Assembly (NCBI GenBank): GCA_964538435.1
Contig: CAZIDX010000001.1
Location: forward strand, 139,304-203,303
Direction of reading: 5' to 3'
DNA from: an uncultured Gammaproteobacteria bacterium
GTDB taxonomy: Bacteria; Patescibacteriota; Patescibacteriia; UBA9934; GWF2-40-263
DNA: 64,000 bases
The position numbers were made by a program, and so were the translations under genes. The number at the start of each line of letters is the position of its first letter. Within the stretch, counting starts at the first letter, position 1. The notes under the pieces are model-generated. The model made no database searches. It saw only the letters and a list, made by a program, of their open reading frames with translations, and was not told the DNA's origin. Shown here one piece after another: positions 696-63,980 of the stretch.

Positions 696-820
696 ATCGC
701 AACTATCATATCATATTTAAAAAGTGCTGATTGTTGTCAAAAAACAAGACAAAACCCTTGACAAAAGCTTAAAAACAAGGTAATCCTTAATGGCCGATTT
801 TGGCTGAAAGGAAGGTATCG

Positions 821-2161
821 ATGTCACACCAACCCCCCGCACGACAGGACCAATTCCTGGATGTGCAGATCGTCCTGGGTCAACACACGATCGACCAGGA
901 CACACGACGCGTTTCGATCCTGCTCAAGGTCGAGCCTGCGAACACACCTCGCAACACAGACCGCGCACTCGACTACCGAATGGTCATCGACCGATCCGGT
1001 TCCATGTCGAGCTCAATCGGCCATGCTCACATGTCCCGACTCGAGGCTGCCAAGACGGCTGTCTCCGCGCTCGTCCGCAACCTAGGCGCCATCGATCAGG
1101 CCATGCTCTGCAGCTTCGACGACAAGGGTCGAGTGGATGTCTCCCTGGACCGCATGACCTCTGCGCGAATCAACACGATGTTGCGCAGGCTCGCTTCCAT
1201 GGAGACGGGTAACAGTACAGAGATCTCCAGCGGCGTACGCCTGGCTCTTGCACCGCAGACGCACGACAAGGTCCCCACGCGCCTGATCCTCCTCACCGAC
1301 GGTCAGAGCCACCCGAACGTCCGCAGAGATCACCAGCGACTCCTCGAGCTCGCTGATCGTTCCCGTAAGCTCGGCATCCCCTGGCTCATCTACGGAACCG
1401 GTGTGGACTACGACTTCGAGCTGCTCCAGCAGCTCCAGGCTCGCATCGGCCACGGTTCGTTCTGCAAGCACGTTCTGGACATGACTGGCTTCGAAGCTCA
1501 CCTTCAAGGTGAGCTCGCATTCCATCGCGGAATCGCCATCGAGGGCCTCAAGATCAGCGGTCAGGCCAAGTTCGGCCAGATCACCAAGGTGCTTCACTTC
1601 TGCCCCAGTCAGCAGGAGCTGCCCAACCGCGACGAAACCGACCAGAACAAGCCCTTGCCGCGTGACTACTTCACCCGCGGTGAGTTCCACGATGCTATTG
1701 GCTGCCTCGATCACTTCCGTGGTCAGCAGCTTCTCATCGAGATGGAAGTTCCACGCGTTGGCTGTGGCGTCCTCGACCTCATCGAGTTCAAGCTCGAGGG
1801 TCGTCAGCTCTCACGTGGTCTCCTGCACTTCAGCGAGCGCGTCAGTGCACAGGTCACCGTCGCTGATGATTCCAGCCAGGTCTCCAGCTACAACCCTGAA
1901 GTCCTCCGGGTCTACCAGGAAATGTCAGCTGCCCGCGCTGCCAAGCGTGAGGAGTACGAACGTGCTGCCCAGCTCTACCAGGCAACCGGCAACATGAGAG
2001 CTGCCACCGACATGCAGACCTTGCACCAGATGTCAGTGGCTGGTCACGATCGCACTGGCCTCCACCGCGAGGCGCACACCATGACCGGCGGCTACACCTC
2101 CATGTGCTTCACCGAGGAGATCGGTGTTCTGCACAACCGCGACTCGGACAGCCAACCATGA
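821..2161 (+). CDS. von Willebrand factor type A (vWA) domain protein (G+C-rich cassette)
   Basis: MIDAS-like motif DRSGSMSS, then ...T..., then LLTDGQS. A GAAGG RBS sits 6 nt upstream of the ATG at 821; the ORF-track start at 800 is a TTG. Its stop overlaps the next start in the sequence ATGA at 2158-2161. Confidence 0.7.
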   Translation: MSHQPPARQDQFLDVQIVLGQHTIDQDTRRVSILLKVEPANTPRNTDRALDYRMVIDRSGSMSSSIGHAHMSRLEAAKTAVSALVRNLGAIDQAMLCSFDDKGRVDVSLDRMTSARINTMLRRLASMETGNSTEISSGVRLALAPQTHDKVPTRLILLTDGQSHPNVRRDHQRLLELADRSRKLGIPWLIYGTGVDYDFELLQQLQARIGHGSFCKHVLDMTGFEAHLQGELAFHRGIAIEGLKISGQAKFGQITKVLHFCPSQQELPNRDETDQNKPLPRDYFTRGEFHDAIGCLDHFRGQQLLIEMEVPRVGCGVLDLIEFKLEGRQLSRGLLHFSERVSAQVTVADDSSQVSSYNPEVLRVYQEMSAARAAKREEYERAAQLYQATGNMRAATDMQTLHQMSVAGHDRTGLHREAHTMTGGYTSMCFTEEIGVLHNRDSDSQP

Positions 2162-2760
2162 GTGCGCTCACCTGCCCGGAGTGTGGGACCACTTATCCCA
2201 AAGGCACCCCCATGTGTCTGGATGACGGCCACATCTTCGTCAAGACAGATGCAGGTCAACAGAGCGCTGAGCTTGCAGAGGAGCCTATCCAGCTGCCGGC
2301 CCCGCGCAACGGCAAGCTGGCAAGACTCGAGCCTGGACCGGGTCCCCAGTTCTACATCGATGTGACACATGTCGATGGAACGGACTTCCCGCCAGGAACA
2401 CATCTCCAGCACTTTCCCCTCGAGCATCTCACTCGGGGCGAGCTGCGCGTAGGACGACGCACCAGAGGAAAACGGACACCCTACCAGCCTGAGGTCGATT
2501 TCCTAGACCTCATTCGAGATCACGCACTGGGAGGTCATGTGATCATCTCTCGCCTGCAGGCCACCCTGCTCATGGACGAGAGTGTTCCAGCGATTCGGCA
2601 TCAGCCCGATCAGATCACGACCTGGATACGGCGCTCAGGATCACCTGACAACAGAGCCCTGCGACCAAACCAGGTCGCCAAGCTGCGCCAACGCGACGTC
2701 ATCACATTCGGAAAGCCAGCACTGCGCTACGTGCGCGTCCGTGTTTGGTGGGACGAATAG
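2158..2760 (+). CDS. Zinc-ribbon plus FHA (forkhead-associated) domain protein, translationally coupled to the vWA gene
   Basis: N-terminal CPECG...C ribbon. FHA-like region: GELRVGRR...EVDFLDL...VIISRLQATLLMDES...SGSPDNRALRPNQVAKLRQRDVITFGKPALRYV. The ATG overlaps the upstream stop. Confidence 0.6.
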   Translation: MSALTCPECGTTYPKGTPMCLDDGHIFVKTDAGQQSAELAEEPIQLPAPRNGKLARLEPGPGPQFYIDVTHVDGTDFPPGTHLQHFPLEHLTRGELRVGRRTRGKRTPYQPEVDFLDLIRDHALGGHVIISRLQATLLMDESVPAIRHQPDQITTWIRRSGSPDNRALRPNQVAKLRQRDVITFGKPALRYVRVRVWWDE

Positions 2761-2774
2761 ACGCACAACCCCGC

Positions 2775-2842
2775 ACTCGTTAGAGTCCGGGGTTTTCTAT
2801 TACGCAAATTGAAAACCGAGTCCTTTCAGACCCGGTCGTTTC
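2775..2842. terminator. Back-to-back hairpin terminators separating the convergent genes 2158..2760 and 2843..3577
   Basis: Hairpin aaccccg...cggggtt followed by TTTTCTATTACG (+ strand). Hairpin gaccgggtc...gactcggt followed by TTTTCAATTTG (read on the - strand). Confidence 0.55.
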
Positions 2843-3577
2843 TCAGTAGCCCAGACCGAGAGCATTCTCGATCAGAACATTATGTGAAGCCACGAATCGG
2901 CTTCCGATGTTGTCGCGCTCATCCTGAAGCGCGCGCATGAGACCTTCTTCCCGCAAGCAAGCAGGATTGGATTCGGCCAACGCACTCGCATGCATAAGCG
3001 CTCGCGCCCACTCCTCGAACTTCTCGTCCGTGGGGGCTACAGCCACGCTCAAGTAGCACTTGTACTGCCCAGGCCATTGCACACCCGCCAGTGGGAACTC
3101 ACCGCCAGCATCTGCATCCACACACGCCACGATCTCGTCCACGATGATCGGATCACGGATCTCCTCGTAGAGTTCACGGGTACCAGCGAGAGGACCACCT
3201 TCCGCAGCTTGACGCGTTCCACCGAACAGAGAGAATCGACCGCGACATTCCGGGTTGGGGTGCTTGTGATCCTTCTTCTGCAGCAGAACCGAGTCGAGTG
3301 ATGCGTTCGCGATCACGGTCACAGCTCCGAACAGCCCCATGCGCTCGAACCTCACGAGCATCCAGGACCGAATCGCAGCAGCGCGGTGTTCATTGATCGA
3401 GACACGATCCAGACGACCATTCACCTTGACAGACGCCAGCTGTCCGTTCAAGGACAGCAGAACCGCGTCATCAGCCTCAGGGATACCGAGAAGTCGGCGC
3501 ACCCAGGCGTCCTCACCCTCCTTGGCATGATCCGGGTGTCGCCCCGGAGTCAGCTCGATCGGACAACTCACCAGCAT
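2843..3577 (-). CDS. Hypothetical protein (G+C-rich, 244 aa), convergent with the vWA/FHA pair
   Basis: Complete ORF with an AGGAGG RBS 4 nt upstream. No motif I can assign. Confidence 0.5.
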   Translation of the reverse strand: MLVSCPIELTPGRHPDHAKEGEDAWVRRLLGIPEADDAVLLSLNGQLASVKVNGRLDRVSINEHRAAAIRSWMLVRFERMGLFGAVTVIANASLDSVLLQKKDHKHPNPECRGRFSLFGGTRQAAEGGPLAGTRELYEEIRDPIIVDEIVACVDADAGGEFPLAGVQWPGQYKCYLSVAVAPTDEKFEEWARALMHASALAESNPACLREEGLMRALQDERDNIGSRFVASHNVLIENALGLGY

Positions 3578-3660
3578 GGGACCTCCTTTGCTAGCGGAGC
3601 TAAAACTTAATAAACATTAGACATGATGTCAACCTTTAGGCTATACTTGTGTCTCCTCGC

Positions 3661-4292: not shown

Positions 4293-5189
4293 TTAATTAA
4301 GCTCCTTGTCAATTGCCTGCATGCTCTCAATGCGTTTTTCAATTTTTGTCTTGAATCCACTGAGTAAAATTGATGTTGCCTTAACAAGATTATCCTCACT
4401 TCCACCATCGGCTTCAATCTGATCTCTTTTTCCATAAAAAATTTCAGCTTGCCTATCTTTCAACCCAATGAAATCCAGTATCTGCTCACCACTCATCTCC
4501 TCTGAGTCCTCACCTACATCTTCTTTGCCTGCCAAGTGCTTCCAAATTTTCTCTTCAACGCTTGGGTCCAATAAAAATTCTGCTACCTCCTTTGTGTTCC
4601 TAAAAACTCGCGATTCATGCCTGAGGTTGCGATCGTATTGTTTCCTGAGCTCCTGCAATGTCAATACTTTGAATCCAAATGCTGTATCCTTGCGTCTTTG
4701 AAACGCTTGAGGATCCACCATGATTGATTTGTAAAAAAACTCAAATGGGTAATCAACCTTCACCGGCCCATCCGCCCCCTGCACCTCAACCTGCAAAACC
4801 CCACCAAGCCTTCTTACCTCTTCACCCTTGTACCGCTTATAACGCCCCTTGTTCGCAAATTTGACTCCAGGAATATTTCTCAAACGTCTCCTGATTTCAT
4901 TAAGAGAATCAAGGCTCTCAACAGCAACGTCTAGATCACCAGGAAAAACCTCTTTCAATGAATCAATATCCCTTTTCATGCCCTGCAAAAATCTAGCTGT
5001 GCTAGCAAACACAACATAATCAGGAATATCCTGAAGCGCATCACGAATCTGAGTGAGTGCTGTCTCCATTGCTTGTTGCTTAATCTCAATCGGAACATCA
5101 TCACTCTCAATATCAAGAGCCTCAGGCTGCGGCTCCTGCACCTCAGCTAATTTTGCTTGATCTAATTCAAAAGCACACATACTTCCCAA
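4293..5189 (-). CDS. Nucleotidyltransferase-fold (pol-beta superfamily-like) protein, function unknown
   Basis: VVFASTARFLQGMKRDIDS...GDLDVAV resembles the minimal NTase signature (G/S-x9-13-DxD). The rest is unrecognised. Confidence 0.35.
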   Translation of the reverse strand: MGSMCAFELDQAKLAEVQEPQPEALDIESDDVPIEIKQQAMETALTQIRDALQDIPDYVVFASTARFLQGMKRDIDSLKEVFPGDLDVAVESLDSLNEIRRRLRNIPGVKFANKGRYKRYKGEEVRRLGGVLQVEVQGADGPVKVDYPFEFFYKSIMVDPQAFQRRKDTAFGFKVLTLQELRKQYDRNLRHESRVFRNTKEVAEFLLDPSVEEKIWKHLAGKEDVGEDSEEMSGEQILDFIGLKDRQAEIFYGKRDQIEADGGSEDNLVKATSILLSGFKTKIEKRIESMQAIDKELN

Positions 5190-5275
5190 ATTGTATCACA
5201 AAACCGGCCTCTCGACCGGTTTCTTATAATCTCTATCCACCCCACAAGCAAGCTATCATCTCAAACCAGTTAGGA

Positions 5276-5357
5276 GGTAATGTGAGAATTTCACGAGGTG
5301 GTGGTCATCTATACTTCGAGATGGCCCGGCTCCGCCGAGTGAGATACTCGCATTACC
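5276..5357 (+). repeat. Hairpin-embedded conserved element, copy 1 (core 5296..5336)
   Basis: Core aggtggtggtcATctatacttcgagaTggcccggctccgcc sits inside the locus-specific inverted repeat ggtaatg...cattacc. The stem gtcAtct/agaTggc carries a compensatory change relative to copies 2-4. Confidence 0.7.
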
Positions 5358-5380
5358 TGCTAACTGGCGTCAATCTCAGC

Positions 5381-6022
5381 CTAGGCTTTTGCTTGCTCTG
5401 CCTCCTCAATCATATCTTTCACCTTCATAAGCGTGATAATGGTTCCACGCTCCTGCTCTGCAAGTTTGTTCTGAATGAACTTGATGGTTTCCTTCATCCG
5501 AGGGATGTACACATACTCTAGCGCATTCACACGCCGCCGAGTCTTCTCAATCTCCTCTGCAAGAAGCTTTGCGCTGTGCTCAACCTCTGCGAGCCTCACC
5601 ATGCTCTCAAGTGACTCTGAGAAATTCTGCAACGCAACATCAAGCTCTGAACTTGTAAAGCTGAATCCATACGAAAGAAAGTCACCTTCCTGTTTGTACT
5701 CAAACTGAGGCACCTCTACACTCATCACGTTCTTCACCTCTGCACTGAGGTATGTCTTCATGCTCGGCAAGAGGAACGCGCTCTTTAGCACAGATGGAGG
5801 TGTCTTAGCAGATGCAAACAAGAATGCACGAAACCCCACAGCAAGCTGATCTTCAACGGTTTCCCTGAGGGTCTTTGCTTCACGAATAATCTCCATGAAC
5901 TGTTTCATGAGACCATCACGCTTGTCCTTAAGTAGCTTATAACCTCGCTGAGAGGTCTTCAGCTTGCGCTTAAGAAGCAGCAATTCTTGTCGTGTTGGAT
6001 TGACTCCTAAGGCATTTGCCAT
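5381..6022 (-). CDS. atpD: A/V-type ATP synthase subunit D
   Basis: 213-aa coiled-coil protein at the end of the A-ATPase operon, with the typical size, position and heptad pattern. Confidence 0.75.
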   Translation of the reverse strand: MANALGVNPTRQELLLLKRKLKTSQRGYKLLKDKRDGLMKQFMEIIREAKTLRETVEDQLAVGFRAFLFASAKTPPSVLKSAFLLPSMKTYLSAEVKNVMSVEVPQFEYKQEGDFLSYGFSFTSSELDVALQNFSESLESMVRLAEVEHSAKLLAEEIEKTRRRVNALEYVYIPRMKETIKFIQNKLAEQERGTIITLMKVKDMIEEAEQAKA

Positions 6023-6027
6023 AAGGA

Positions 6028-7434
6028 TTATTCGTTATCTGACTTGTCTTCTTTCTTAGGAAGATACTTCTCAATATGATGCTCTTTGAGCCTCTTGAGC
6101 TCACGTTTTGGCAAGATAGTGAAAAGCTTCCAAGCGATTTCAAGAGTCTCTTCAATTGACCGATCATCATCCTTTCCTTGAGTGATAAACTCCTTTTCAA
6201 ACGCTTCAGCAAACTTGATGTATGCACGTTCAGCATCACTAAGAGCTGACTCACCAAGAATCACCGCAAGCTCACGAGCCTCTTTACCTGTCGCATATCC
6301 AGCAAAGAGCTGGTTAGCAACACCTGAGTGGTCATCACGTGTCTTTCCTTCTCCAATACCCTTTGACGCAAGTCGTGAAAGAGATGGAAGTGGATCAATA
6401 CATGGATAAATACCCTTTCGGTAAAGCTCTCGAGAAACAACCACCTGCCCCTCTGTAATGTAACCCGTAAGGTCAGGGATTGGGTGAGTCTTATCGTCTT
6501 CTGGCATGGTCAAGATCGGAATCTGTGTTACTGATCCTTTTCGTCCGCGAATCTTTCCTGCTCGTTCGTAGATAGTTGAAAGGTCCGTGTAGAGATATCC
6601 AGGATAACCACGTCGTCCAGGAATCTCCTTACGAGCCGCACCAACTTCTCGAAGTGCCTCACAGTAGTTGGTAAGGTCTGTCAAAATCACGAGTACATGC
6701 TTGCCTTTTTCAAACGCAAGGTACTCTGCTGTTGTGAGCGCCATTCGTGGAAGTGTGATTCGTTCAACCACTGGATCATCAGCTAGGTTGATAAAAAGCA
6801 CTGATCGCTCAATCGCCCCTGTTTTCTTGAACTCATTGATAAAAAACTCAGACTCCTCAAACGTCACACCCATCGCACCAAAAATCACACAGAAATCCTC
6901 ATCATCACCACCAGCATCAGAAACAACCTTTGCCTGACGCGCAATCTGCGCGGCAATCTCATTATGTGGAAGTCCAGCACCTGAGAAGAGTGGAAGTTTC
7001 TGTCCACGCACAAGTGTGTTAAGCCCATCAATGGTTGAAATACCAGTCTGGTAAAAGTCCTCTGGAAGCTCACGTGAGTACGGGTTGATTGGAGCACCGT
7101 TGATATCCAAATACTTCTCTGGAATCACAGCAGGCATACCATCCTTTGGATCAGCCACTCCTGAGAACACTCGTCCAAGCATGTCTGTTGACACACCGAT
7201 CTGAAGTGTCTTCCCAAGGAATGTTGCTGTTGCATTGTCCACGTCAATCCCTGATGTTCCCTCAAACATCTGCACAACCGCGTGCTTGTCTGTGATCTCA
7301 AGAACACGACCTCGTCGCTTTTCTCCATCACCAAGCTCCACCTCTACAATTTCTTCGTACATGACATCTGTAATGCCATCCACGATCACAAGTGGTCCCT
7401 GGACCTCCTTGATTGTCTTGTATCGTTTTTCCAT
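6028..7434 (-). CDS. atpB: A/V-type ATP synthase subunit B (non-catalytic)
   Basis: 468 aa with characteristic B-subunit sequence (...[38 protein letters not shown]...) and no canonical P-loop. Confidence 0.9.
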
Positions 7435-7435
7435 A

Positions 7436-9187
7436 TTATTGCGCAGAGATTAAATTCTTAATCTGATCTGCTGCTGTCTTTGCAAGTCCTTTAAGCTTGT
7501 CCTCGTCTGTCTCTAGTTTTGCTTTTGCAATCTCATCCTTAAACGGAAGCTCCGAAAGGTCTTTTACTTTTACATCCTTCTCTACAGCCTGAGTAGCATT
7601 CTCATGGAAGGTCATAATAGCCTTTAGCATGAGGTACATCCGTGCAGGAGGTGTGTATCCATCAACATCATCAAACGCAAACTGCTGCAAGTAGTCCTCA
7701 CGAATTGACTTGGCAGTATCAAGCACAACCTGCTCCTTTGCAGAGAGCGCATCAAGACCAACAAGCTTTACAATCTCCTGCAAACTGGACTCTTCCTGAA
7801 GAATTCCCATTGCTTCCATTCGCATTTCAGGCCAATCATTTCCAAAGTTCGCTCTCGCGTACTCTTCAATGTTATCCGTGTAAAGAGAGTAACTGTTGAG
7901 CCAATGAATCGCTGGGAAGTGACGTCGGTTAGCAAGCCCAGAGTCAAGCCCCCAGAACACCTTTGTCACACGAAGCGTGTTCTGTGTAACAGGCTCTGAA
8001 AGGTCTCCACCAGGAGGACTCACCGCACCAATAACAGAAAGTGACCCCTTGCGATCATCTTCTCCAAGACAGTTCACAGCACCAGCACGCTCGTAGAACG
8101 CAGCTGTTCGTGAACCCAAGTACGCTGGGTATCCCTCCTCACCAGGCATCTCCTCTAGTCGTCCAGAGATCTCACGAAGCGCCTCAGCCCATCGTGAAGT
8201 TGAGTCAGCCATAAGAGCCACATTGTAGCCCATGTCTCGGTAATACTCTGCCAAAGTAATTCCTGTGTACACAGACGCCTCACGCGCTGCCACAGGCATG
8301 TTTGATGTGTTTGCGATCATGGATGTTCGTTCCATGAGTGGCTTTCCTGACTTCGGGTCAATAAGCTCCGGGAACTCAACCAACACGTCTGTCATCTCGT
8401 TTCCACGCTCACCACAACCAATGTAGATGATGATGTCAGCATCACAATGCTTAGCAAGCGACTGCTGCGTCACGGTCTTTCCTGCTCCAAACGGTCCAGG
8501 AATACATGCTGCTCCACCTTTAACCAGTGGGAAGAATGTGTCCAAAATGCGCTGCCCAGTCACAAGCGGAGTCTTAGGCAAAACCTTTTCCTTGTACGGT
8601 CGTGGCTTTCGAATCGGCCATTTCTGCATCATTTGAATCTCAACATCTCCAACCTTCCCGATCACTTCTTCCACAGTGTATGAACCACTCTTTACTCCGG
8701 TGATCGTTCCCTCCACTCCAGGCGGCACCATGATTTTGTGCTCAATAAGATCGGTTTCTTGAACGGTTCCGATAACATCACCAGGATGCACTGGCTCACC
8801 ATCGCTCATAAGGGCCTTAAAGTCCCATTTCTTTTCACGGTCAAGTCCAGGCGCCTCAATTCCTTTTGTAATGTAAGGAGACTGAGCGATGCGTTCGATC
8901 GACTCAAGAGGGCGCTGAACACCGTCATAAATTGATTTCAAGATTCCGGGCCCAAGCTCTACAGAGAGAGGCATTCCTGTCATAAGTACTGGGTCACCTG
9001 GTTTGAGACCAGCTGTATCCTCGTACACCTGAATGGATGCCGTGTCACCCTGGAGTTTGATGATTTCACCCACAAGCTTGTGCTCACCGATTTTAACCAC
9101 GTCGAACATTCGCGCGTTGGTCATTTCAGCGGCAACCACAAGTGGTCCAGAAACCTTGATGATAACTCCGTTGTGTTCTTTCGCCAT
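7436..9187 (-). CDS. atpA: A/V-type ATP synthase catalytic subunit A
   Basis: 583 aa with Walker A motif GPFGAGKT and A-subunit-specific non-homologous region. Confidence 0.9.
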
Positions 9188-9190
9188 AAA

Positions 9191-9523
9191 TTAATTGTTG
9201 AATAGAATATCGCTTCCAATCGCCTGCTCAACAATCTTTTTCAAGTTTGCCAAACCGTCCTTTGTTGCCCCTTGCGGAGACGGAACAGTCACAAGCGCTG
9301 GAAGTGCTTCGTTTTTAAATGCTTCATCAAGGCTTGAGCGCACACGCGTGGCCCACTCCTCGGTAATGAATACTGCTGCAAATTGGTCTGATTTGAGTGT
9401 CTTGATGATCTCATCAATTTCACTCTCTTCCTTGATTGGCAAGCAAGCCACACCAAGAGGAATAAACCCCATGATGGCTTCCTCACTTCCAATGACACCA
9501 ATTTTGTAGTTTTGCTCTGCCAT
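9191..9523 (-). CDS. atpF: A/V-type ATP synthase subunit F
   Basis: 110 aa, positioned between subunits C and A as in A-ATPase operons. Confidence 0.7.
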   Translation of the reverse strand: MAEQNYKIGVIGSEEAIMGFIPLGVACLPIKEESEIDEIIKTLKSDQFAAVFITEEWATRVRSSLDEAFKNEALPALVTVPSPQGATKDGLANLKKIVEQAIGSDILFNN

Positions 9524-9524
9524 A

Positions 9525-10523
9525 TTAGTACGTATCTACAAGATGCTTTCGAATCTCTGAAGGCTCAATCTCACCAAACTTCAATGCCATGATTGTGCTC
9601 AGATTCTTGATCGCAAATTTCTTTCCAAAGTAATACGCAACCACCACTTCAGGCCCATACCCAATAAGCTTAGCCTTCTTGAGATGATCAATGATCACAT
9701 TATTGATTCCCCGAGACAGTCTCCAGATCTCCCTATCCTTCATGTAGTCCTCAATGTGCTCATCAAGCATCGGCGGAAAGTAATTTCTAAGCTGACCTAC
9801 AAATTCTGCTTCATCCGCAGAATCAACATGAGCCATAAAAACATGTAATGAGATATTCCCATAACTGTTTAAACGTTCCTTGACCCACGCAGAACTCTTT
9901 CCAAGTCTCTTTCCGCGAAGCAATAGCTTGATATTGTTTTTGTCAGCAAAGTACTTGTACAAATCAATAATAAATTGATTGCCAATCTTCTTTGCGATTG
10001 AGTGCTCAATGTGATTGAGCTTCTGGTCAACAAGATTTTCAATTCGCTCTGCATCAACCTCTTCTCCAATCTCTTGCTTAAGCTCGTCAATGTCTCTCTT
10101 TACTTTTTCATCAATCTCAGCACCAAGATCCTCAACAATATATCGTCGAAGCTGATCAATCGGGATAAGACCAGGCGCTGTCTCAAGGTGGTCCTCATAA
10201 TTCTCACCAGAAACTTTTTCTTTAAACAGTATCTTGATGTTGTAAAAATCTCGTTCAAGGAACAAAAGTCGCATGAGCTTTGGTTCAGGAATCGTCTGCT
10301 CAAACACTTTCTTGAGTCGGCTCATCTTTCGGCTCATGGCAACGCGGTAATCCTTTGCTTCCAAATCAAGAAGCTCACCCGCATAGTCAAGACTATTAAA
10401 AGCCTTAAACGCAATATCAGGCGTTTTTGCATCGATCACACGTGTCATGTCCGCATCGCTCAAAAGATGTTTCTCTAGGGAGCGAATCTTGGAACTGACG
10501 TAGATGTAATTATCGCGTGACAT
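9525..10523 (-). CDS. atpC: A/V-type ATP synthase subunit C (V-type d)
   Basis: 332-aa helical protein in the expected position. Confidence 0.7.
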   Translation of the reverse strand: MSRDNYIYVSSKIRSLEKHLLSDADMTRVIDAKTPDIAFKAFNSLDYAGELLDLEAKDYRVAMSRKMSRLKKVFEQTIPEPKLMRLLFLERDFYNIKILFKEKVSGENYEDHLETAPGLIPIDQLRRYIVEDLGAEIDEKVKRDIDELKQEIGEEVDAERIENLVDQKLNHIEHSIAKKIGNQFIIDLYKYFADKNNIKLLLRGKRLGKSSAWVKERLNSYGNISLHVFMAHVDSADEAEFVGQLRNYFPPMLDEHIEDYMKDREIWRLSRGINNVIIDHLKKAKLIGYGPEVVVAYYFGKKFAIKNLSTIMALKFGEIEPSEIRKHLVDTY

Positions 10524-10526
10524 GGA

Positions 10527-11093
10527 TTATGCGTTAAACATGGATTGATAAACCTCAATGAGCGATTGCTCACGAACCCGTTCCATAATGGTTTCAAAAC
10601 GGAAGTCGCGATCAATCGACTTACTCTGAAAGACAAACCCACCCACTGTCTCAATCGCGTCAGTAGAAATACTTGCTTTACAACCTGCCTTTTTCGCAGC
10701 TGCCGCAAGTTCAGCATGACGCTCTTTTGATGTAAGGAGCTCCCCTTCCTCGTCCTTGATTGACGAGAGCAACGTCTCAAGCAAGGCTTCATACTCACCC
10801 TTAGGAAGCTTTGCAACTTCCTCAAGAGCATCTGCATACACACTGTCAAGCTGAGCCTGTTTTGTACCAAGAAGCTTCGCGTTTACTTTTTCACGAATCT
10901 TAAACTTAGCCTGAGCAAGCTTTGAGTCAGTGTACCGTTCAATATCTTTAAGAAGACGCTCCTTTTCTTCACCTAAACGAACTTTCCACTCTTTTTCAAG
11001 AGCGGCTAGTTCATCTGAAGAACGCTTCTCAATGACTTTGATTTCATCGGCAGCCTTGTCCTTGATGTACTGTTGAATATCGTCAAAAGCCAT
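10527..11093 (-). CDS. atpE: A/V-type ATP synthase subunit E
   Basis: 188 aa, charged coiled-coil N-terminus, operon position. Confidence 0.7.
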   Translation of the reverse strand: MAFDDIQQYIKDKAADEIKVIEKRSSDELAALEKEWKVRLGEEKERLLKDIERYTDSKLAQAKFKIREKVNAKLLGTKQAQLDSVYADALEEVAKLPKGEYEALLETLLSSIKDEEGELLTSKERHAELAAAAKKAGCKASISTDAIETVGGFVFQSKSIDRDFRFETIMERVREQSLIEVYQSMFNA

Positions 11094-11098
11094 AGCTT

Positions 11099-11572
11099 TT
11101 AGACTGCAATACTAGTAACAAGCAAGATGGTGATAAGAAGTCCAAGCACAGCATAGGTCTCAACCATCGCTGAAAGAATGATTGCCTTACCAGACTCACC
11201 TGGCTTCTTAGCTACAACCCCCATACCCGCAGCTGATACACGCCCCTGAAGAAGTCCAGAAACAAGACCAGTAATTGCGATTGGAAGTGCTGCAAAGAAA
11301 ATCTGCCAACCAACTGAAGTTGAGATGGTTGCGATTTCTCCTCCGAGAAGACCGATCTTCTGAAGGATCATGATGGCAGCCAAGAATCCATAAATTCCCT
11401 GCGTACCAGGAAGCGCTTCAAGAAGAAGAGCTTTACCGAACTTGTCTGGATCTTCAGACACAACACCGCTTGCAGCTTGACCAGCAGCCCCCATTCCGAG
11501 TGCTGAACCAGCTCCTGCAAGACCAACGGCGAGAGCGGCACCAAATACCGCGAGTGCAATTCCCATTTCCAT
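11099..11572 (-). CDS. atpK: A/V-type ATP synthase proteolipid subunit K (c-ring)
   Basis: 157 aa, very hydrophobic and Gly/Ala-rich, with paired TM hairpins and a conserved acidic residue in a TM helix. Confidence 0.8.
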   Translation of the reverse strand: MEMGIALAVFGAALAVGLAGAGSALGMGAAGQAASGVVSEDPDKFGKALLLEALPGTQGIYGFLAAIMILQKIGLLGGEIATISTSVGWQIFFAALPIAITGLVSGLLQGRVSAAGMGVVAKKPGESGKAIILSAMVETYAVLGLLITILLVTSIAV

Positions 11573-11607
11573 AGTTTTGAATAACGATTAACGTTTATGA
11601 TTAGTGA

Positions 11608-13575: not shown

Positions 13576-13885
13576 AGGCTTTGAACTGTTTGATTACAAG
13601 ATCCTTAGCTTTCTTCACCTTGTCATCAGCTCCCTTAGCAATCTGATCCACATCTGACTTAAGCTGCTTCACCATGACATCTTTTTGCGCAGCAACTTCT
13701 GTCTGCACCTTCTCAGAAGCTTTTTTCCGATCACCACCAAGAGTTTCGGACAATTTATCAAACTCTTCCTGGTACTTATGATCAAGATCAGCCTTTGCTT
13801 TCTTTGCTTTTTCCAAAGCCTTAGCAATCGCTTTCTCAGCTGCCTCTTCTTCTTTCTGAATGTTCGCAATAGTTTGAGTGCTCAT
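13562..13885 (-). CDS. atpH: A/V-type ATP synthase subunit H (peripheral stalk)
   Basis: 107-aa Lys/Ala/Glu-rich helical protein and the first gene of the operon. Confidence 0.6.
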   Translation of the reverse strand: MSTQTIANIQKEEEAAEKAIAKALEKAKKAKADLDHKYQEEFDKLSETLGGDRKKASEKVQTEVAAQKDVMVKQLKSDVDQIAKGADDKVKKAKDLVIKQFKAYVSQ

Positions 13886-16178: not shown

Positions 16179-16207
16179 TTGACAAAATCTCCATTTTCTG
16201 GTATTCT
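16179..16207 (+). promoter_or_regulatory. Near-consensus sigma70-type promoter for gene 16359..18098
   Basis: TTGACA (16179-16184), 17-nt spacer, TATTCT (16202-16207). Confidence 0.5.
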
Positions 16208-50149: not shown

Positions 50150-50195
50150 TTCAACAATAACAAATAGAAAACCCCCGCCAAAGCAGGGGCTCGTT

Positions 50196-51269
50196 TCAAC
50201 CCCAGTGAATCTGTCTCTGATGTCGTATCAGAGCTCGCTTCACTGCTCGAAGCTGGTCTCGTATCTCACTCTCCTCGGTGGGAAGAGGCTCGAGAAGAAA
50301 TGGACATTCACTGAGCACAGCCCTCACATCTATGTTGCTCGGCCCCTGATCCACTCGGGCTGGATCAAGTCCCAGCATGGTAGGCGCGAAAAGCTCGTTC
50401 ATGGTGAGCAACGTATACTCACGCGTCTCAACGAAACTCTGACCCACGTCTCCGACCACACATCCCTCCTTGCCCTGCCAGACCTCCTCAGCCACCTGAG
50501 CGTAACGCTCAGAAGCGATTGTCTGCTCATGAAGCAAGCAAAGATCTGTGAACGTCTTTCCTGAAGAAGGCCCCTTCTCCTCAGTCACGTGGAAGATGGC
50601 CTGTGATAGAACCACCATCAAGTCCATACCGTGCTTCTTGCAGGACTCCCAGGTCCGAGCAACGCCCTGCCACGACCCAGCAGCCACAAAGAGAATGATT
50701 CGCGCAGGCATGCGCCCACCTTCCTCCTGCGCCTTCTGAGCAATGAATTCGACCATTGCCTCACCAGTCGACCCGGACGCCATTGCCCCTTCGGCAATGA
50801 TGATATTCTCGGCAAAGAAGTAGCCCTTGTGAGAATCCCTCACCACCGCCTTCCACACACCGGGCGACACTTCCCTGCGCCCCGCCTCCATAAAGGACGT
50901 TTGCAAGGGAAGGATGTTGTGCTCATCAAAGAGATCAGCCATCCCCTTCCACGCGCGAAAGTACAGACCCCCGTTGAGCGGAACCCATTGCGCGAAGTTG
51001 CCGCTGAGATCACGGAGTTCATCACCCACCGCCCAAATCATGCTGCGTATCAGGTGCTTTGCAGCACGAATTCGATCACGTCCCATGACCATACGATGGA
51101 AGAACACCTCTCCAGGCGCCGATTCCACAACGTACATACGAGGTGGGAACGCGTCTGGTCTCAAGCGAAAATTCATTCGCAGACGAACCGTGTCCAAATC
51201 CCATTTGGTAATGGAAGGTTGACCAGGAACACGTACCTCCTGAGGCACACCAACATCTTCAAGAAGCAT
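50196..51269 (-). CDS. Hypothetical G+C-rich protein with a possible type-I PRTase (UPRTase-like) region
   Basis: AAAGGAGG RBS before the ATG at 51269. IIIAEGAMASGSTGEAMVEFIAQ...ARIILFVAAGSWQGVA loosely resembles Upp DPMLATGGSVIATIDLL...IKVLVLVAAPEGIAAL. The terminator ends GGGGGTTTTCTATTTG. Confidence 0.4.
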   Translation of the reverse strand: MLLEDVGVPQEVRVPGQPSITKWDLDTVRLRMNFRLRPDAFPPRMYVVESAPGEVFFHRMVMGRDRIRAAKHLIRSMIWAVGDELRDLSGNFAQWVPLNGGLYFRAWKGMADLFDEHNILPLQTSFMEAGRREVSPGVWKAVVRDSHKGYFFAENIIIAEGAMASGSTGEAMVEFIAQKAQEEGGRMPARIILFVAAGSWQGVARTWESCKKHGMDLMVVLSQAIFHVTEEKGPSSGKTFTDLCLLHEQTIASERYAQVAEEVWQGKEGCVVGDVGQSFVETREYTLLTMNELFAPTMLGLDPARVDQGPSNIDVRAVLSECPFLLEPLPTEESEIRDQLRAVKRALIRHQRQIHWG

Positions 51270-51378
51270 GTCGCCTCCTTTCATTGCGCCCAAACCCTAG
51301 CAATACTCTGTTTTTTTGTAAATAGTTCTACAAAAAGCTTGTTGTTCGTGATACCATCACAGTTGAATACTTCACACT

Positions 51379-52831: not shown

Positions 52832-52909
52832 ACAAAAAAAGCAGGCCTCGCGCCTGTTTTTGTTTGACACATTTTGTCTTACCCCATATTCTCAAAATAT
52901 GGAGGTCTA

Positions 52910-53191
52910 ATGGATGAAAAACTTGTTGAACGCCTAGAACAGGCTGTACGCGACGCCTCACTCCTTGTTTCTCGCATGGAGCGCATTACTGAATCATTCT
53001 CCGGCACAATCAGAGAGTTCTCTGCTTCTGCCACCAAAATGTACGAAGCAGCAAGAGCCAACGACGCCGCATCTGTACGAAACCTTGAAGCTGCACAAAT
53101 CAACGACGCTGCCTCTATGCGTTTCCAAGAAGCTGCGCGCACCATGTCAGCAGCCGCATCACGCATCCAGGCCGCATCCTCTCGCCGCTAG
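52910..53191 (+). CDS. Small Ala-rich protein built from ~14-aa repeats (xxxEAARxNDAAS)
   Basis: GGAGG RBS. KMYEAARANDAAS / VRNLEAAQINDAAS / MRFQEAARTMSAAAS / RIQAASSRR. Confidence 0.45.
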   Translation: MDEKLVERLEQAVRDASLLVSRMERITESFSGTIREFSASATKMYEAARANDAASVRNLEAAQINDAASMRFQEAARTMSAAASRIQAASSRR

Positions 53192-53217
53192 CAACGGATC
53201 TCCGTTGCTTTTCTTTT

Positions 53218-53279
53218 CCCTCACAAAAAACAAGGTGGTGGTCGTCTATTCTGCGAGACGGCCCGGCTCCGCCGAGGGA
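53218..53279 (+). repeat. Hairpin-embedded conserved element, copy 4 (core 53233..53273)
   Basis: The core differs from copies 2 and 3 at one position (tattctg vs tatcctg). Flanked by ccctc...gaggg. Confidence 0.7.
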
Positions 53280-53368
53280 ACTTATTTCAGTACTACAGTG
53301 AGCGTATTGACAAAACCCTCATTTTGTGGCACTATTCCTCACCACTGTTTCCCGAAAGGAGCAGAAAC

Positions 53369-53812
53369 ATGAATCAGTTCTTCGCTCGACTCCTGAGCAT
53401 CCGTATCTTCCGAGGTCAAAGCACGACCACCAAGCAGAAGAACGCACGCGCGTTCACGATCGAGATGACTCCTCTCACCGACGAGTCTGCCCAATGGGCC
53501 TCCAAGTACTGGAACACGGACGAGGGCGGCATCTTCTACATCCGCGCCTGCTACGCCCCCAGCTCCGCAATACCCAACGACGGCATGGCACTGCGGTACA
53601 TGGAGCGACACCTCACCGAGTTCCGCTCAGGCCGTCTGCGCTTCGAGCTCAAGATCGCCCGCCCCGAACAGACCCCCACGCTCGTGGATGACATGGTGCA
53701 GGAGTTCCCACCCAGCATCCTCATCACCCGCCGCAACATCGTCCGCATCTCACAGGACGACGGCACGAACGACGGCATCGACCTGCTCAACGAACTGGGC
53801 ATGAGTGCCTAG
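53369..53812 (+). CDS. Hypothetical 147-aa protein (G+C-rich cassette)
   Basis: AAGGAG RBS. The terminator acccgcagc...gctgcgggt plus T-run follows at ~53835-53875. Upstream TTGACA at ~53307. Confidence 0.5.
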   Translation: MNQFFARLLSIRIFRGQSTTTKQKNARAFTIEMTPLTDESAQWASKYWNTDEGGIFYIRACYAPSSAIPNDGMALRYMERHLTEFRSGRLRFELKIARPEQTPTLVDDMVQEFPPSILITRRNIVRISQDDGTNDGIDLLNELGMSA

Positions 53813-53919
53813 ACATCGGCAATCACGCGCCGAAAACAACGGACCCGCAGCCTTACCAGCTGCGGGTCATGTTTTTATCCACTTGCATATTGCATACAAA
53901 AAAGTAAAATCAATGACAT

Positions 53920-54915: not shown

Positions 54916-54936
54916 TATTGACAAAATTTCAACCCT

Positions 54937-55200
54937 ATGGTAAACAATACAGCTCCATCAACCCAAACAGAAGCGGAGGACGGCATGTTCCAACCTGCTG
55001 AGGGTGTCTTGGATGACGCCCGCACGATCGCTGAAAAGATGATCAAGGCGGGCGAAACGCACGCCGCCTACCCTGAAGACGGAAGGCCGATGTTCCATGT
55101 GACGTCGGATGAATCACTTCTCGCCTCAGTGCTGGGCGACTTCGAGATCGACGACACAACCATCTACTTCGGCTTCCTCAGGAATGCCGATGAAAAGTAG
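54937..55200 (+). CDS. Small acidic protein (G+C-rich cassette)
   Basis: Complete ORF followed by the hairpin ccaccgtttcccggtgagg plus CGTTTTCTAATTC. The start may be the internal ATG at ~54985. Confidence 0.35.
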   Translation: MVNNTAPSTQTEAEDGMFQPAEGVLDDARTIAEKMIKAGETHAAYPEDGRPMFHVTSDESLLASVLGDFEIDDTTIYFGFLRNADEK

Positions 55201-55280
55201 CCGCACTCTCGAACCACAACGCCCCACCGTTTCCCGGTGAGGCGTTTTCTAATTCAAAAATGCTATTCGCTCAAGCTTGA

Positions 55281-62190: not shown

Positions 62191-62940
62191 CTAAACCAGT
62201 ATAGCAGACTCACTCAGCATGTAATCACCAACACTCACTCGCTTAAGCGAATAAAGCGCACAGCCGCAACCAAATTCTCCTCCCATCTCATGAGCAAGCG
62301 CTCTGATATACGTCCCAGACGTAACAGTTAGAGTACAGCCAATGAGTTGCACAGAGTCGTTATCAAAATCAAAATCCTCCCAGAGCTCGATGATCTCGTC
62401 TTGTCTAAAGCCTCCCCGCACTCGAGACGCTCGATCAAGAACATTCTTTTTGATCTCCTCGACATCCTCATTGTAAATCCTAACCCCCTCCACACCAAGC
62501 ACCCTCATTTCTTTTACAGGAACCTTAACCTCATCAAGTCTACCCTCCTTCACCCAGCAGTGAAGAGGCTTTCCTTTTACTCGATATGAAGAATACGGTG
62601 GGAACGGAAGATTATGAATTCCGAGCAAGAACGAACTAATCCTATCCTTAGTAATCTCGGACGAGGCTGATCCTCTCTTAATCAAACCAAGACAGTCATA
62701 CGTATCGGATTCAACACCAAGCAAAAACGTTGCTTCGTAAACCTTACTCATCTTTTGAAACGATTCCTTTTCATACCGCTCTTCACCTGAAAGCAAAATC
62801 AAAACCCCCTCTGCCATAGGATCTAGCCGGCCAGCATATGTAATGGGGTCATCTGCCAGTTCAGGTTGCATTTCCTTGAATTTATTAATCACATCAAGCG
62901 GAGACCACCCGATTGGTTTGTAAAAATTGTGTATTGGCAT
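62191..62940 (-). CDS. truB: tRNA pseudouridine(55) synthase TruB
   Basis: GRLDPMAEGVLILL catalytic-Asp motif and GTYIRALAHEMG. Confidence 0.8.
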   Translation of the reverse strand: MPIHNFYKPIGWSPLDVINKFKEMQPELADDPITYAGRLDPMAEGVLILLSGEERYEKESFQKMSKVYEATFLLGVESDTYDCLGLIKRGSASSEITKDRISSFLLGIHNLPFPPYSSYRVKGKPLHCWVKEGRLDEVKVPVKEMRVLGVEGVRIYNEDVEEIKKNVLDRASRVRGGFRQDEIIELWEDFDFDNDSVQLIGCTLTVTSGTYIRALAHEMGGEFGCGCALYSLKRVSVGDYMLSESAILV

Positions 62941-63023
62941 GACTGAAGAATAATACAGATAAGAAAAAAATGAAATTAGAAAACCAGCCCCACAAGTGAG
63001 ACTGGCGCGTTGTCGTCTAGGCC

Positions 63024-63710
63024 TTAGCCGTCCACGACTGCGATCTCGAACGGAATCTTGGCCACACCCTTGTCACCATCCGGGACCGGGCAGTAGCCTT
63101 CGTCCGAACTGGGATCTGCGTAGTAGACGGTCATGTGCTGACCATCGTTGTGTACCTCGCAGGTGACACCCGGGAACTCGGTTCCGCTCTTGAGCTTCGC
63201 GGCGTAGGTGCCGTCCTCGAAGTCGTAGCCCGGCAGCAGAGGCAGGACCAGCGACCCGTCATGGCCGGGCGCAGTGTAGATGACCGTGCTCTCGTTCCCA
63301 TGCCACGTGCCAGCACGAGGCCAGCAGGCCATGTCCGAGGCATCGAGCAGATCCAGCCCGACCTCGAGCACGTGCTGCTTACCCTTGTGGTCCGTGGCCG
63401 AGCAGGTCGCCACAGCAGGAACATCCTCGAGCGGGAACATCTCCCGCGGCAGGTCGATCAAGATCGTGAGGTCGCCCATCTCGTTGACCGCACAGGTCAT
63501 CGGGGACCAGGAGCTCTCGAGCACCTTGGTGTTGTCAGGCCGATCCAGCACAGGGATGACCTCTTCCCAGGTCTCGAAGACCAGACTGGTTTCCCCACCA
63601 TCGAAGACGAGGTCCGGGCACAGCTCGAGCGTGACACCGTCATGCGTGACGGTCGCACCCGCCTGCGCGAAGGAAGACAGAAGAACAGCGAAAGACAGAA
63701 GGAACTTCAT
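63024..63710 (-). CDS. Secreted protein (G+C-rich cassette)
   Basis: Signal peptide MKFLLSFAVLLSSFAQA. Six Cys residues. The terminator (read on - strand) ccagtctcacttgtggggctggTTTTCTAATTTC lies downstream at ~62975-63020. Confidence 0.5.
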   Translation of the reverse strand: MKFLLSFAVLLSSFAQAGATVTHDGVTLELCPDLVFDGGETSLVFETWEEVIPVLDRPDNTKVLESSWSPMTCAVNEMGDLTILIDLPREMFPLEDVPAVATCSATDHKGKQHVLEVGLDLLDASDMACWPRAGTWHGNESTVIYTAPGHDGSLVLPLLPGYDFEDGTYAAKLKSGTEFPGVTCEVHNDGQHMTVYYADPSSDEGYCPVPDGDKGVAKIPFEIAVVDG

Positions 63711-63734
63711 GAGGTTCTCAGGGGTTCGGGGTTG

Positions 63735-63980
63735 CTACTCGTAGGAGTAGTCATCGCCTTCGGCGGTTTCTGTGACGTAGGTCCAGGACCTGCACTCGCA
63801 CGAATGCGCGACAACGCACCCGTTCCAAGAGCTGCACTGAGAGAAGTAGTTCGGTAAGCCGATCTCCTCGCAGTGGGTCTTGCATTCCTCATGCTTCTCA
63901 GCACAGGTCTCGCAGTCGTCACACGACCCGGCATACACCGGAATCGTGAGAATCAACATCAGTGTCAGAAGGAGCTTCAC
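63735..63980 (-). CDS. Small Cys-rich secreted protein (81 aa, 10 Cys)
   Basis: Signal peptide MKLLLTLMLILTIPVYAGS, then CDDCETCAEKHEECKTHCEE...CSSWNGCVVAHSCEC. Confidence 0.5.
   Translation of the reverse strand: MKLLLTLMLILTIPVYAGSCDDCETCAEKHEECKTHCEEIGLPNYFSQCSSWNGCVVAHSCECRSWTYVTETAEGDDYSYE

Follow-up and report, generated by a model that had tools for sequence, protein, structure and literature searches.

Two gene classes of different composition and different expression signals interleaved in a 64-kb stretch of Patescibacteria DNA

Horizontally acquired genes of atypical composition drift toward the composition of the resident genome, a process described by Lawrence and Ochman as amelioration. 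Deviant composition is also the mark of phage morons (Hendrix and colleagues), autonomous promoter-gene-terminator units that lie between prophage genes, while the gene cassettes of integrons are promoterless and belong to a system made of an intI integrase, an attI site, a Pc promoter and attC sites with R''/R' cores. As to translation, the Bacteroidia are poor in Shine-Dalgarno (SD) sequences: their mRNAs are leadered with an A-rich, non-SD motif, and few genes have a strong SD. Leaderless and SD-led initiation are mixed in group C of the GeneMarkS-2 classification (e.g. Actinobacteria and Deinococcus), as described by its authors (Lomsadze et al. 2018, PMC6028130). Here, we analyse a stretch of 64,000 nucleotides (contig CAZIDX010000001.1 of assembly GCA_964538435.1, positions 139,304 to 203,303), hereafter the window, in which G+C-rich genes with their own promoters, SD sequences and terminators (class 2) are interleaved with an A+T-richer backbone that follows other conventions (class 1). 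A first-pass annotation of this DNA had proposed two gene populations with separate composition and separate promoter, ribosome-binding site (RBS) and terminator conventions, and our analysis bears this out on all counts.

Sliding-window composition gives a background of 0.40-0.48 G+C, broken by blocks of 0.56-0.65 at 880-3580, 14960-18440, 25280-26440, 34000-35000, 39940-43220, 50260-51120, 53080-53820 and 63060-63880, to which the small open reading frame (ORF) 54985-55200 is to be added; the cassette coordinates proposed earlier agree with these blocks. With gene starts curated from the sequence, 19 genes were placed in the G+C-rich set (class 2) and 52 in the backbone (class 1). Class 2 amounts to about 15 stand-alone transcription units and 21% of the window bases, and class 1, about three quarters of the window genes, comprises housekeeping and other genes in tight operons. 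The G+C content of third codon positions (GC3) is 0.72 ± 0.10 in class 2 (range 0.48-0.91) and 0.43 ± 0.06 in the backbone (range 0.30-0.55; Mann-Whitney p = 4e-10). Computed per ORF, it is bimodal in the window: a two-component Gaussian mixture (means 0.43 and 0.74, weights 0.75 and 0.25) is favoured over a single component by 22 units of the Bayesian information criterion (-81.7 vs -59.7). GC1 and GC2 are likewise raised in class 2, the proteins contain more A, G, P and R and less K, I, N and Y, and the codon style favours C- or G-ending codons, with AAG and GAG preferred. The enrichment extends to the untranslated parts of the class-2 units (pooled 5' untranslated regions (UTRs) 0.52, 3' spacers 0.57), and the block borders are sharp and coincide with promoter and terminator.

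The two classes also differ in their signals. An SD sequence, scored as 4 nt or more matching TAAGGAGGTGA within -20..-4 of the curated start, is present in 16/19 G+C-rich genes vs 5/52 backbone genes (Fisher p = 5e-9), and many of the 16 have the form AAGGAGG(T); automated calling over several candidate starts per ORF inflated the background (18/59), and curated starts were used instead. The AGGAGG-type SD sequences ascribed to the cassettes, and their near absence from the backbone, are thus confirmed. TTGACA-N16-18-TAnnnT occurs 10 times in the window vs 1.4 expected, and eight of these strict matches lie directly upstream of G+C-rich genes, in line with the TTGACA-type promoters proposed for the cassettes; in several further class-2 units TTGACA is paired with a weaker -10 box. 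A lengthened -35 box, TTGACAAAA, is common (758, 16080(-), 16179, 30031, 40967(-), 45700(-), 53307 and 54918), and this extension is kept in the orthologous promoters of three related loci, L084, L086 and L090, in L086 as TTGACAAAT. The -10 box is weak or variable, as in the promoter of a phosphoribosyl-pyrophosphate (PRPP)-synthetase-like gene, where it reads CAAGGT in two genomes. A conserved, extended -35 box with a variable -10 box may mark promoters of a class for which the -35 box, an activator or a specific sigma factor is decisive. The leader usually measures about 10-60 nt between -10 box and ATG, with one of 150 nt. At the 3' end, class-2 terminators are one-way, with a tail TTTTCTAATT or similar: 11 of 14 consist of a hairpin followed by a TTTTCT(A/C/G)(A/T)TT or TTTTCAATTT tail, without an upstream A-run. 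All positions at which recurring tails had been reported were found again. The hairpin stems differ between units; the conserved part is the T-rich tail, which is not GTTRRRY. The two classes could not be told apart by a generic scan for promoters and terminators. That these signals go with high G+C holds generally, but not throughout: the unit at 52864-53218 has them at a GC3 of 0.48, and one TTGACA-N17-TATTCT match (30031) belongs to a backbone gene.

The backbone, credited at first only with the lack of an SD, has a start convention of its own, which the first-pass annotation had overlooked. The first genes of backbone operons have TATACT or TATAAT 8-9 nt before the ATG at 29168, 33157(-), 33866(-), 37318(-), 52257 and 59084(-), and at 13-14 nt at two further sites, 3642 and 57293(-). 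Because this spacing is the one expected for leaderless mRNAs, these genes are probably transcribed without a leader, and such mRNAs are perhaps widespread in this Patescibacterium; a literature search found no published report of leaderless mRNAs in Patescibacteria. Operon-internal genes start 1-5 nt past the preceding stop codon, or overlap it (TAAT..ATG), and have no SD, an arrangement that suggests translational coupling. The contrast between the classes would therefore be one of two complete start/stop modes, not merely of SD presence or absence. Backbone terminators follow suit, with about 17/20 being symmetric A-run/hairpin/T-run structures that work two-way. The stretch 29160..33880 illustrates the leaderless-type starts on both strands (ATGs 29168(+), 33157(-) and 33866(-)), with a bidirectional A-run/hairpin/T-run terminator at 31185-31215. 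A second example, 4293..13885 on the minus strand, had been taken for an atp operon; it is low in G+C and free of SD sequences as stated, but is a V/A-type ATPase operon with a downstream gene (GC3 0.35-0.54), in which gene spacing is mostly 1-5 nt, with one 35-nt gap and one overlap. The backbone also includes the methionyl-tRNA synthetase gene (metG) at 19966-21396. Several starts taken from public assemblies or from the longest-ORF rule look wrong.

The window is chromosomal DNA of a bacterium of the Patescibacteria, or Candidate Phyla Radiation (CPR). Its backbone MgsA protein has its best matches in Patescibacteria metagenome-assembled genomes (58-63% identity), although the species-representative genome set holds no close relative, the best MgsA match (63%) having no gene order in common with the window. 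The same DNA was found in Logan assemblies of run SRR8146440, where L001 corresponds to window 18420-22880, L002 to 15702-18254 and L083 to 31950-37041. L083 was compared directly over its 5,092 bp and is identical (100%) and gapless, both junctions of the PRPP unit included; it lies in a 37,384-bp Logan contig that by its coordinates (about 23716-61099) would take in six G+C-rich units. Of the six Logan contig ends, three coincide with copies of a five-copy hairpin repeat described below (18379, 22877 and 61100), a fourth falls in the PEPK repeat (15702), and none falls at a unit border. A record look-up of the 2843-3577 protein, made for the leftmost junctions in Logan assemblies, returned nothing. 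The low-GC/high-GC/low-GC arrangement recurs in independent NCBI, ENA and JGI contigs of other samples.

Inheritance could be traced for five of the 19 class-2 genes, starting from two G+C-rich enzymes that were searched, the PRPP-synthetase-like protein and a purine-nucleoside-phosphorylase (PNP)-like protein, with orthologues in L084, L086, L088 and L090. Homologues of the PRPP-like protein carry Patescibacteria names, i.e. Uhrbacteria (55% identity), Magasanikbacteria and Yanofskybacteria, and one is named Myxococcales. Its orthologues are G+C-rich in an A+T-richer setting: in L084 (74% protein identity) GC3 is 0.68 between flanks of 0.33-0.45; in L086 (Uhrbacteria, 55%) it is 0.77, with flanks of 0.39-0.55 and one other G+C-rich gene (0.70); and in L088, a complete 1.0-Mb genome (44%), it is 0.68 with flanks of 0.34-0.48. 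A GGAG-type SD precedes the gene in all three, a TTGACA promoter in L084 and L086, and a hairpin with a TTTTCTGATT tail follows it in the two closer relatives (74% and 55%). The neighbourhoods overlap that of the window in part and at matching identity levels: L084 shares a NUDIX gene (66%) and the orthologue of 38370-39806 (77%), L086 those of 31219-31875 (56%) and 30031-31179 (38%), and L088 has MgsA and DsbD/Msr genes near the PRPP-like gene. For the PNP-like protein (41122-42027), the best homologue (82% identity) is found on FLOH01000056.1 (L090); this relative, about 80% identical in amino acids, has gene order in common with window 35-52 kb. There, GC3 is 0.74 for the PNP gene, 0.69 and 0.60 for two lipoprotein genes and 0.59 for the orthologue of 50196-51269, and the PNP promoter, leader and SD are kept.

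Divergence and strand skew tell the same story. Between the window and L090, cassette genes have an identity of 0.31-0.56 at four-fold degenerate sites and backbone genes one of 0.34-0.57, with 0.26-0.38 expected from composition alone; synonymous divergence is about equal for the two. Backbone four-fold sites are very strongly asymmetric between strands, with a plus-strand (C-G)/(C+G) of about +0.44 and (A-T)/(A+T) of about +0.19, in genes on either strand. For cassette genes the plus-strand C/G skew is +0.43 on the plus strand and +0.14 on the minus strand (p = 0.049), and the minus-strand genes have a plus-strand A/T skew of +0.43 (p = 2e-4). All 64 kb apparently belong to a single replichore, the plus strand having lagging-strand-type composition; 37 of 52 backbone genes are on the minus strand. 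The 'intermediate' GC3 (0.50-0.55) of some plus-strand backbone genes is due to this strand skew and does not denote a third gene class. Taken together, the composition, SD and promoters of the orthologues, the equal divergence and the resident skew speak for long residence and co-divergence with the chromosome, and against recent independent imports: the class-2 genes traced are old residents whose class label is inherited.

Individual class-2 units have nevertheless been gained, lost or moved between relatives. In L090, the block of PNP and two lipoprotein genes stands between the orthologue of 45280-45660 and a Wzy gene, not beside the orthologue of 38370-39806. Upstream of cfa, where the window has the PRPP unit, L090 has a different gene (GC3 0.87) in the corresponding slot; the membrane-protein unit 40005-40919 is missing at the L090 locus, which has additional G+C-rich genes without counterpart in the window. 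Backbone-type genes also differ between the two loci, the region being rearranged in general. The earlier statement that the classes interleave at kilobase scale without integrase or transposase stands: Pfam scans of 40 window proteins found no integrase, transposase or recombinase domain. The window contains no tRNA and no rRNA gene, no conserved recombination core was seen at unit ends, and in a tblastn search of a phage collection the only matches were distant ones to PRPP synthetases (24-33% identity), with none for the 579-aa class-2 protein. Among the loci examined, the only mobility gene adjoining any G+C-rich unit is an IS200/IS605-type Y1 transposase gene (Y1_Tnp), at 4992-5420 of L171, directly downstream of a PNP-like gene.

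We thus propose that class 2 is an old, lineage-conserved second gene class, held by selection and able to change position, a proposition to which we give an even chance. Two gene-expression conventions would run side by side in one Patescibacteria genome. In class 1, the first genes would be leaderless, the internal genes coupled stop to start, SD sequences absent and the terminators two-way A-run/hairpin/T-run structures. A class-2 module would consist of a strong TTGACA -35 box (often TTGACAAAA), an SD leader, a G+C-rich transcribed body and a one-way terminator with a UUUUCU(A/G)(A/U)UU tail, and, as each unit brings its own promoter and terminator, its mobility would be eased. High G+C may be an equilibrium, and not a relic of a foreign donor, kept by selection on the leadered, SD-dependent mRNA, on its structure, stability or output; selection at this level is favoured because the rise in G+C follows the borders of transcription units and includes the UTRs. 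G+C-rich, structured mRNAs would need an SD in a cell whose default initiation is SD-independent, and the SD is maintained in orthologues at 44-82% identity despite saturation at neutral sites, an indirect argument for its use. In its strongest form, which we put forward tentatively and consider somewhat improbable, the proposal is that the genome is stably split between a leaderless/coupled, SD-free, A+T-richer core and leadered, SD-dependent, G+C-rich modules for scavenging and the cell surface. Since the class survives more than 50% protein divergence, whole-unit selection, and not outside gene flow, would then hold two compositional equilibria. In a still more extreme version, class-2 signals and codon style would be tuned to a G+C-rich, SD-using host cell.

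Several observations weigh against this proposal. Inheritance of the class label covers only the five genes mentioned. In L171 (PNP 58% identity) the contrast is weaker: GC3 of the PNP gene is 0.56, two of its neighbours have 0.65-0.71 with an SD, and several ordinary genes are also SD-led. A metagenome scan with a PRPP-family profile returned 80 loci with four true members, three in G+C-rich contigs and one in a 39%-GC contig. In the latter (L093) the contrast is absent, the PRPP homologue having a GC3 of 0.31, and the other three family members (38-44% identity) lie in uniformly 62-68% GC contigs (L091, L092 and L094), an SD being present in L094 at least. The two-class split is not equally strong in all lineages. 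Polarised synonymous-substitution counts, made with outgroups, were small and biased by outgroup composition. Class 2 cannot be defined by 'high expression' alone, since the genes classically known for it either do not occur in the window or, like those of peroxiredoxin and V-ATPase, are members of class 1. We know of no mechanism that selects high G+C across whole transcription units, and about half of Parcubacteria have been reported to be without the 16S anti-SD motif (PMC9297842).

What other origin could the G+C-rich units have? The first-pass annotation had offered many acquisitions from one high-GC donor, possibly actinobacterial, or a dedicated cassette-capture mechanism, or a deliberately assembled mosaic, and none of the three is borne out. 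If many units had been acquired separately and fairly recently from a single high-GC donor lineage, for instance an actinobacterial host, this would explain a codon style like that of high-GC Gram-positive bacteria and the strong SD, but such acquisitions are very unlikely and largely refuted: the homology check of donor taxonomy, run on two enzymes, places the PRPP-like and PNP-like proteins closest to Patescibacteria and not to Actinobacteria, with no close homologue outside the CPR; orthologues in four other Patescibacteria genomes are already G+C-rich and SD-led, partly in a shared gene order; the genes have diverged at synonymous sites as far as the backbone and bear the resident strand skew; the 579-aa protein comes from a family of only 32 members, the best at 48% identity; and no close phage DNA or protein match was found. 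An ancient import is a more serious, if still doubtful, possibility. The units or their founders would have come from G+C-richer, SD-using bacteria together with their signals and been passed down since then within this Patescibacteria clade, and their composition would be a slowly decaying or refreshed remnant of the donor. PRPP-like genes in uniformly G+C-rich contigs, with an SD in at least L094, the Myxococcales homologue, a GC3 spread (0.48-0.91) as wide as if the units differed in age, the weakening of the contrast in L171 and its loss in L093, and the differences in presence and position between relatives are all in its favour. Yet drift should have erased the contrast in PRPP orthologues which, at 44-74% identity and with saturated synonymous sites, keep a GC3 of 0.68-0.77. 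Moreover, substitutions have accrued at the same rates as in the backbone, both enzymes tested have their nearest homologues in Patescibacteria, and the promoters between class-2 genes are A+T-rich, unlike the intergenic DNA of a high-GC donor.

High G+C could also arise within the lineage if accessory and surface genes were often exchanged in a naturally competent population and biased mismatch repair raised their G+C. Such GC-biased gene conversion would suit a cargo rich in surface and secreted proteins and pilin, the variable presence and position of the units, the rise in G+C at all codon positions and in UTRs and, after strand correction, the enrichment of G as much as of C. We consider it quite unlikely: conversion tracts need homology and should smear G+C into the backbone neighbours, whereas the borders are sharp at promoter and terminator; divergence from L090 is the same as that of the backbone, with no sign of recent exchange; and +0.3 GC3 is, to our knowledge, far above the effects reported for gene conversion in bacteria. 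Integron-like or transposon-like capture would make the hairpin and tail a recombination site instead of, or besides, a terminator. The hairpin and conserved tail (GGTTTTCTAATT) do stand at the 3' end of almost every unit, in relatives too, the slot upstream of cfa holds one G+C-rich gene in one genome and another in a second, and L171 has its Y1 transposase gene beside the PNP gene. This is nonetheless highly improbable, as the scans of 40 window proteins found no integrase or transposase in the 64 kb and no conserved recombination core was seen at the unit ends; the units have promoters of their own, unlike integron cassettes, and no matching element at their 5' ends; the hairpin stems are not conserved, and the tail is a plausible U-tract placed as a terminator requires. 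Finally, two compositions interleaved at kilobase scale with textbook promoter, RBS and terminator parts, and an NheI site adjoining one SD, might raise the suspicion of an artefact, be it an assembly that joins two organisms, one low-GC and one high-GC, or a mosaic of engineered or synthetic origin. The chance of this is negligible: a Logan contig built from raw reads spans the PRPP-unit junctions at 100% identity (31950-37041), contig ends fall at the five-copy repeat and not at unit borders, the same arrangement recurs in independent NCBI, ENA and JGI assemblies, and the units carry the local strand skew.

The class-2 units are distributed over both strands. Unit 1 (758..2803, +) has a TTGACA(758-763)-N17-TAATCC promoter, an SD AGGAAGG, a VWA-domain gene (821-2161, GC3 0.75) overlapped by a 200-aa gene (2158-2760), and a hairpin terminator at about 2769-2803 with tail TTTTCTATT. 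Unit 2 (2806..3632, -), with promoter TTGACA-N17-TAAGTT (3604-3632), SD AAGGAGGT and a terminator at 2806-2837 (tail GGTTTTCAATTT), encodes a 244-aa protein with a weak NUDIX-like match (2843-3577). An NheI site (GCTAGC, within window 3578-3600) lies immediately 5' of the perfect SD AAAGGAGGT of this gene and occurs so in this unit only; the 'designed' look of the junction is most likely due to chance. Unit 3 (14893..16108, -; promoter 16080-16108, SD GGAGG) encodes an acidic PEPK-repeat protein (14976-16013) and ends in a long hairpin with a T-rich tail (14893-14960). Unit 4 (16179..18207, +) has a TTGACA-N17-TATTCT promoter (16179-16207), a 150-nt leader, an SD TAAGGAGG and a terminator at about 18176-18207 with tail TTTTCTATTT. 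Its product, the 579-aa protein (16359-18098), has the most extreme GC3 (0.91) and belongs to a small, unnamed family of 32 representatives (best 48% identity). It gave no Pfam, NCBIfam or PADLOC hit and its family no PHROG hit; the AlphaFold model is confident (pLDDT, the predicted local distance difference test, 81), and neither the PDB nor viral models yielded a matching fold. The leader of this gene (16208-16358) is unusually long, and about 250 nt of G+C-rich (0.62) non-coding DNA (18099-18355) follow the gene; either could be a regulatory leader or a small RNA. A CA-rich low-complexity tract lies there at about 18205-18265, in which one Logan contig ends (18254).

Units 5 and 6 (both +) lie at the pilin locus. 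The former (25148..25414; promoter TTGACA-N17-TATTCT, SD AAGGAGG, terminator 25385-25414 with tail CGTTTTCTAATT) encodes a 36-aa membrane peptide (25215-25325), and the latter (25443..26532; promoter TTGACA-N17-TATATT, terminator 26497-26532 with tail TCTTTCAATTTT) a type IV pilin-like protein with an N_methyl motif (25512-25934) and a 153-aa membrane protein (25938-26399). Their two terminators and a third at 25059-25096, which comes after a small ORF of intermediate composition (about 24870-25040), belong to one hairpin family (GACGACC...GGTCGT) with different loops, all within 1.5 kb, which looks like local duplication of terminator modules. Unit 7 (33881..35086, +; -35 box TTGACA 33881-33886, SD GGAGA, terminator 35050-35086 with tail TTTTCTCATAATT) contains the divergent PRPP-synthetase-like gene (33950-35041, GC3 0.72), whose TIGR01251 score of 109 bits is below the cutoff of 113. 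Unit 8 (39912..40995, -; promoter 40967-40995, SD GGAGG, terminator 39912-39950) encodes a 304-aa membrane protein (40005-40919, GC3 0.78) and has a G+C-rich 3' spacer. The divergent PNP-like gene (41122-42027, GC3 0.77) is that of unit 9 (41057..42046, +; promoter TTGACA-N16-TAGAAT, SD AGGAGGT, tail GGTTTTCTATTT at 42035-42046), and two paralogous lipoprotein genes (42094-42696 and 42686-43297) make up unit 10 (42050..43371, -; promoter TTGACT-N17-TATATT at about 43342-43371, terminator 42050-42090 with tail GGTTTTCTGTTTG). Unit 11 (50155..51300, -; SD AAGGAGG, terminator 50155-50192 with tail GGTTTTCTATTT) encodes a 357-aa protein (50196-51269, GC3 0.59) with an orthologue at the same place in L090. 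The 93-aa protein of unit 12 (52864..53218, +; gene 52910-53191) is the one of intermediate composition (GC3 0.48) that has class-2 signals all the same (TTGACA-N17-TATTCT, SD GGAGGT and a hairpin with TTTTCTTTTCC tail). Unit 13 (53307..53875, +; -35 box TTGACAAAA, SD AAGGAG, terminator 53841-53875) encodes 147 aa (53369-53812, GC3 0.84), and unit 14 (54918..55254, +; promoter TTGACAAAA-N-TAAACA, SD GGAGGA, tail CGTTTTCTAATT at 55243-55254) 71 aa (54985-55200). Unit 15 (62974..64000, -; terminator 62974-63010 with tail GGTTTTCTAATT) extends past the window end and encodes secreted proteins (63024-63710 and 63735-63980). Several other class-2 products are small membrane or secreted proteins. 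The cargo bias noticed at first sight (PRPP-synthetase-like, PNP-like, weak NUDIX-like, VWA, pilin, small secreted and membrane proteins) is real, and the classifiable part, nucleotide salvage together with envelope and secreted proteins, fits what may be a host-interaction and scavenging gene set; PADLOC found no anti-phage defence hit for 10 cassette proteins.

Other features of the window deserve mention. The five-copy hairpin element (5255-5375, 18340-18460, 22840-22950, 53195-53300 and 61060-61180) lies on the plus strand in all copies regardless of the direction of neighbouring genes, and three of the copies coincide with breaks in Logan contigs. A core of about 42 nt (AGGTGGTGGTCGTCTATCCTGCGAGACGGCCCGGCTCCGCC) is conserved and lies at the tip of long outer stems, whose sequence varies while their complementarity is kept: 13 of 32 predicted pairs are changed on both sides, and the copy at 5296 has a compensatory core change (GTCGTCT/AGACGGC to GTCATCT/AGATGGC). 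Rfam gave generic hairpin hits only for the element, and no family at gathering score anywhere in the window; no copy was found in the fetched relatives or in viral contigs. It may be a REP (repetitive extragenic palindromic)- or MITE (miniature inverted-repeat transposable element)-like element that is mobilized by a Y1 transposase; a structured small RNA is the other candidate. A 33-nt inverted repeat (94% complementary, 14199-14231 / 14766-14798) brackets a 177-aa gene with a PaaX_M / Cas2-like domain (14235-14768), its arms overlapping the start and stop regions of the gene; it could delimit an invertible or mobile segment, or provide paired operator sites. The backbone gene 29183-30034 is an unusual fusion of ATP-cone, Mrr-like restriction-endonuclease and AF1548-like C-terminal domains, and its predicted product is possibly a nucleotide-sensing nuclease.

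Differences in composition within a genome are routinely read as recent horizontal transfer, a reading contradicted here for the five traceable genes. If the pattern holds genome-wide, about a fifth of such CPR genomes would be falsely flagged or discarded by contamination filters and by composition-based detection of transfer, and gene callers that learn one start model will misplace the starts of one class. It would also provide a natural system in which SD-independent and SD-dependent initiation coexist, the choice being readable in the DNA, so that the purpose of each mode could be asked in ultra-small symbionts with reduced ribosomes. The class-2 promoter, SD and terminator parts are candidate genetic tools for CPR bacteria.

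No prior description of this two-class pattern in Patescibacteria/CPR was found in the searchable literature; compositional heterogeneity is joined here with dual initiation modes, a new combination, in that literature, of known components. Like integron cassettes, the class-2 units are short, single-gene units ending in an imperfect hairpin. Unlike them, they have their own promoters and are scattered on both strands, without intI, array or R''/R' core sites. They resemble morons in being autonomous, of deviant composition and individually gained and lost, but their neighbours are chromosomal genes (V-ATPase, tRNA synthetase, MgsA, cfa) and they are inherited with the chromosome. With islets of atypical genes they share atypical composition and codon use, patchy presence and accessory-type cargo; unlike in ameliorating islets, their composition persists across saturating divergence, their homologues are in the same phylum, they have the resident skew and no tRNA or integrase gene lies nearby. 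Atypical genes are also usually A+T-richer than the core (PMC6028130), while class-2 genes are G+C-richer. As in the SD-poor Bacteroidia, most genes of the window have no SD and a minority has a strong one; unlike in Bacteroidia, the sequence signs are those of leaderless starts and stop-start coupling, and the SD-led minority is large (27% of genes) and G+C-rich. GeneMarkS-2 group C comes close in having a -10 box about 6-10 nt from the start of first genes and a second, SD-led gene set (PMC6028130), although that paper, in its accessible part, does not name Patescibacteria among the groups where group C is frequent. There, operon-internal genes and leadered first genes have an RBS (PMC6028130), whereas the internal backbone genes of the window have none. 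Unlike in group C as so described, the SD-led set of the window is a separate compositional class (+0.3 GC3), with its own terminator type and organized in stand-alone units.

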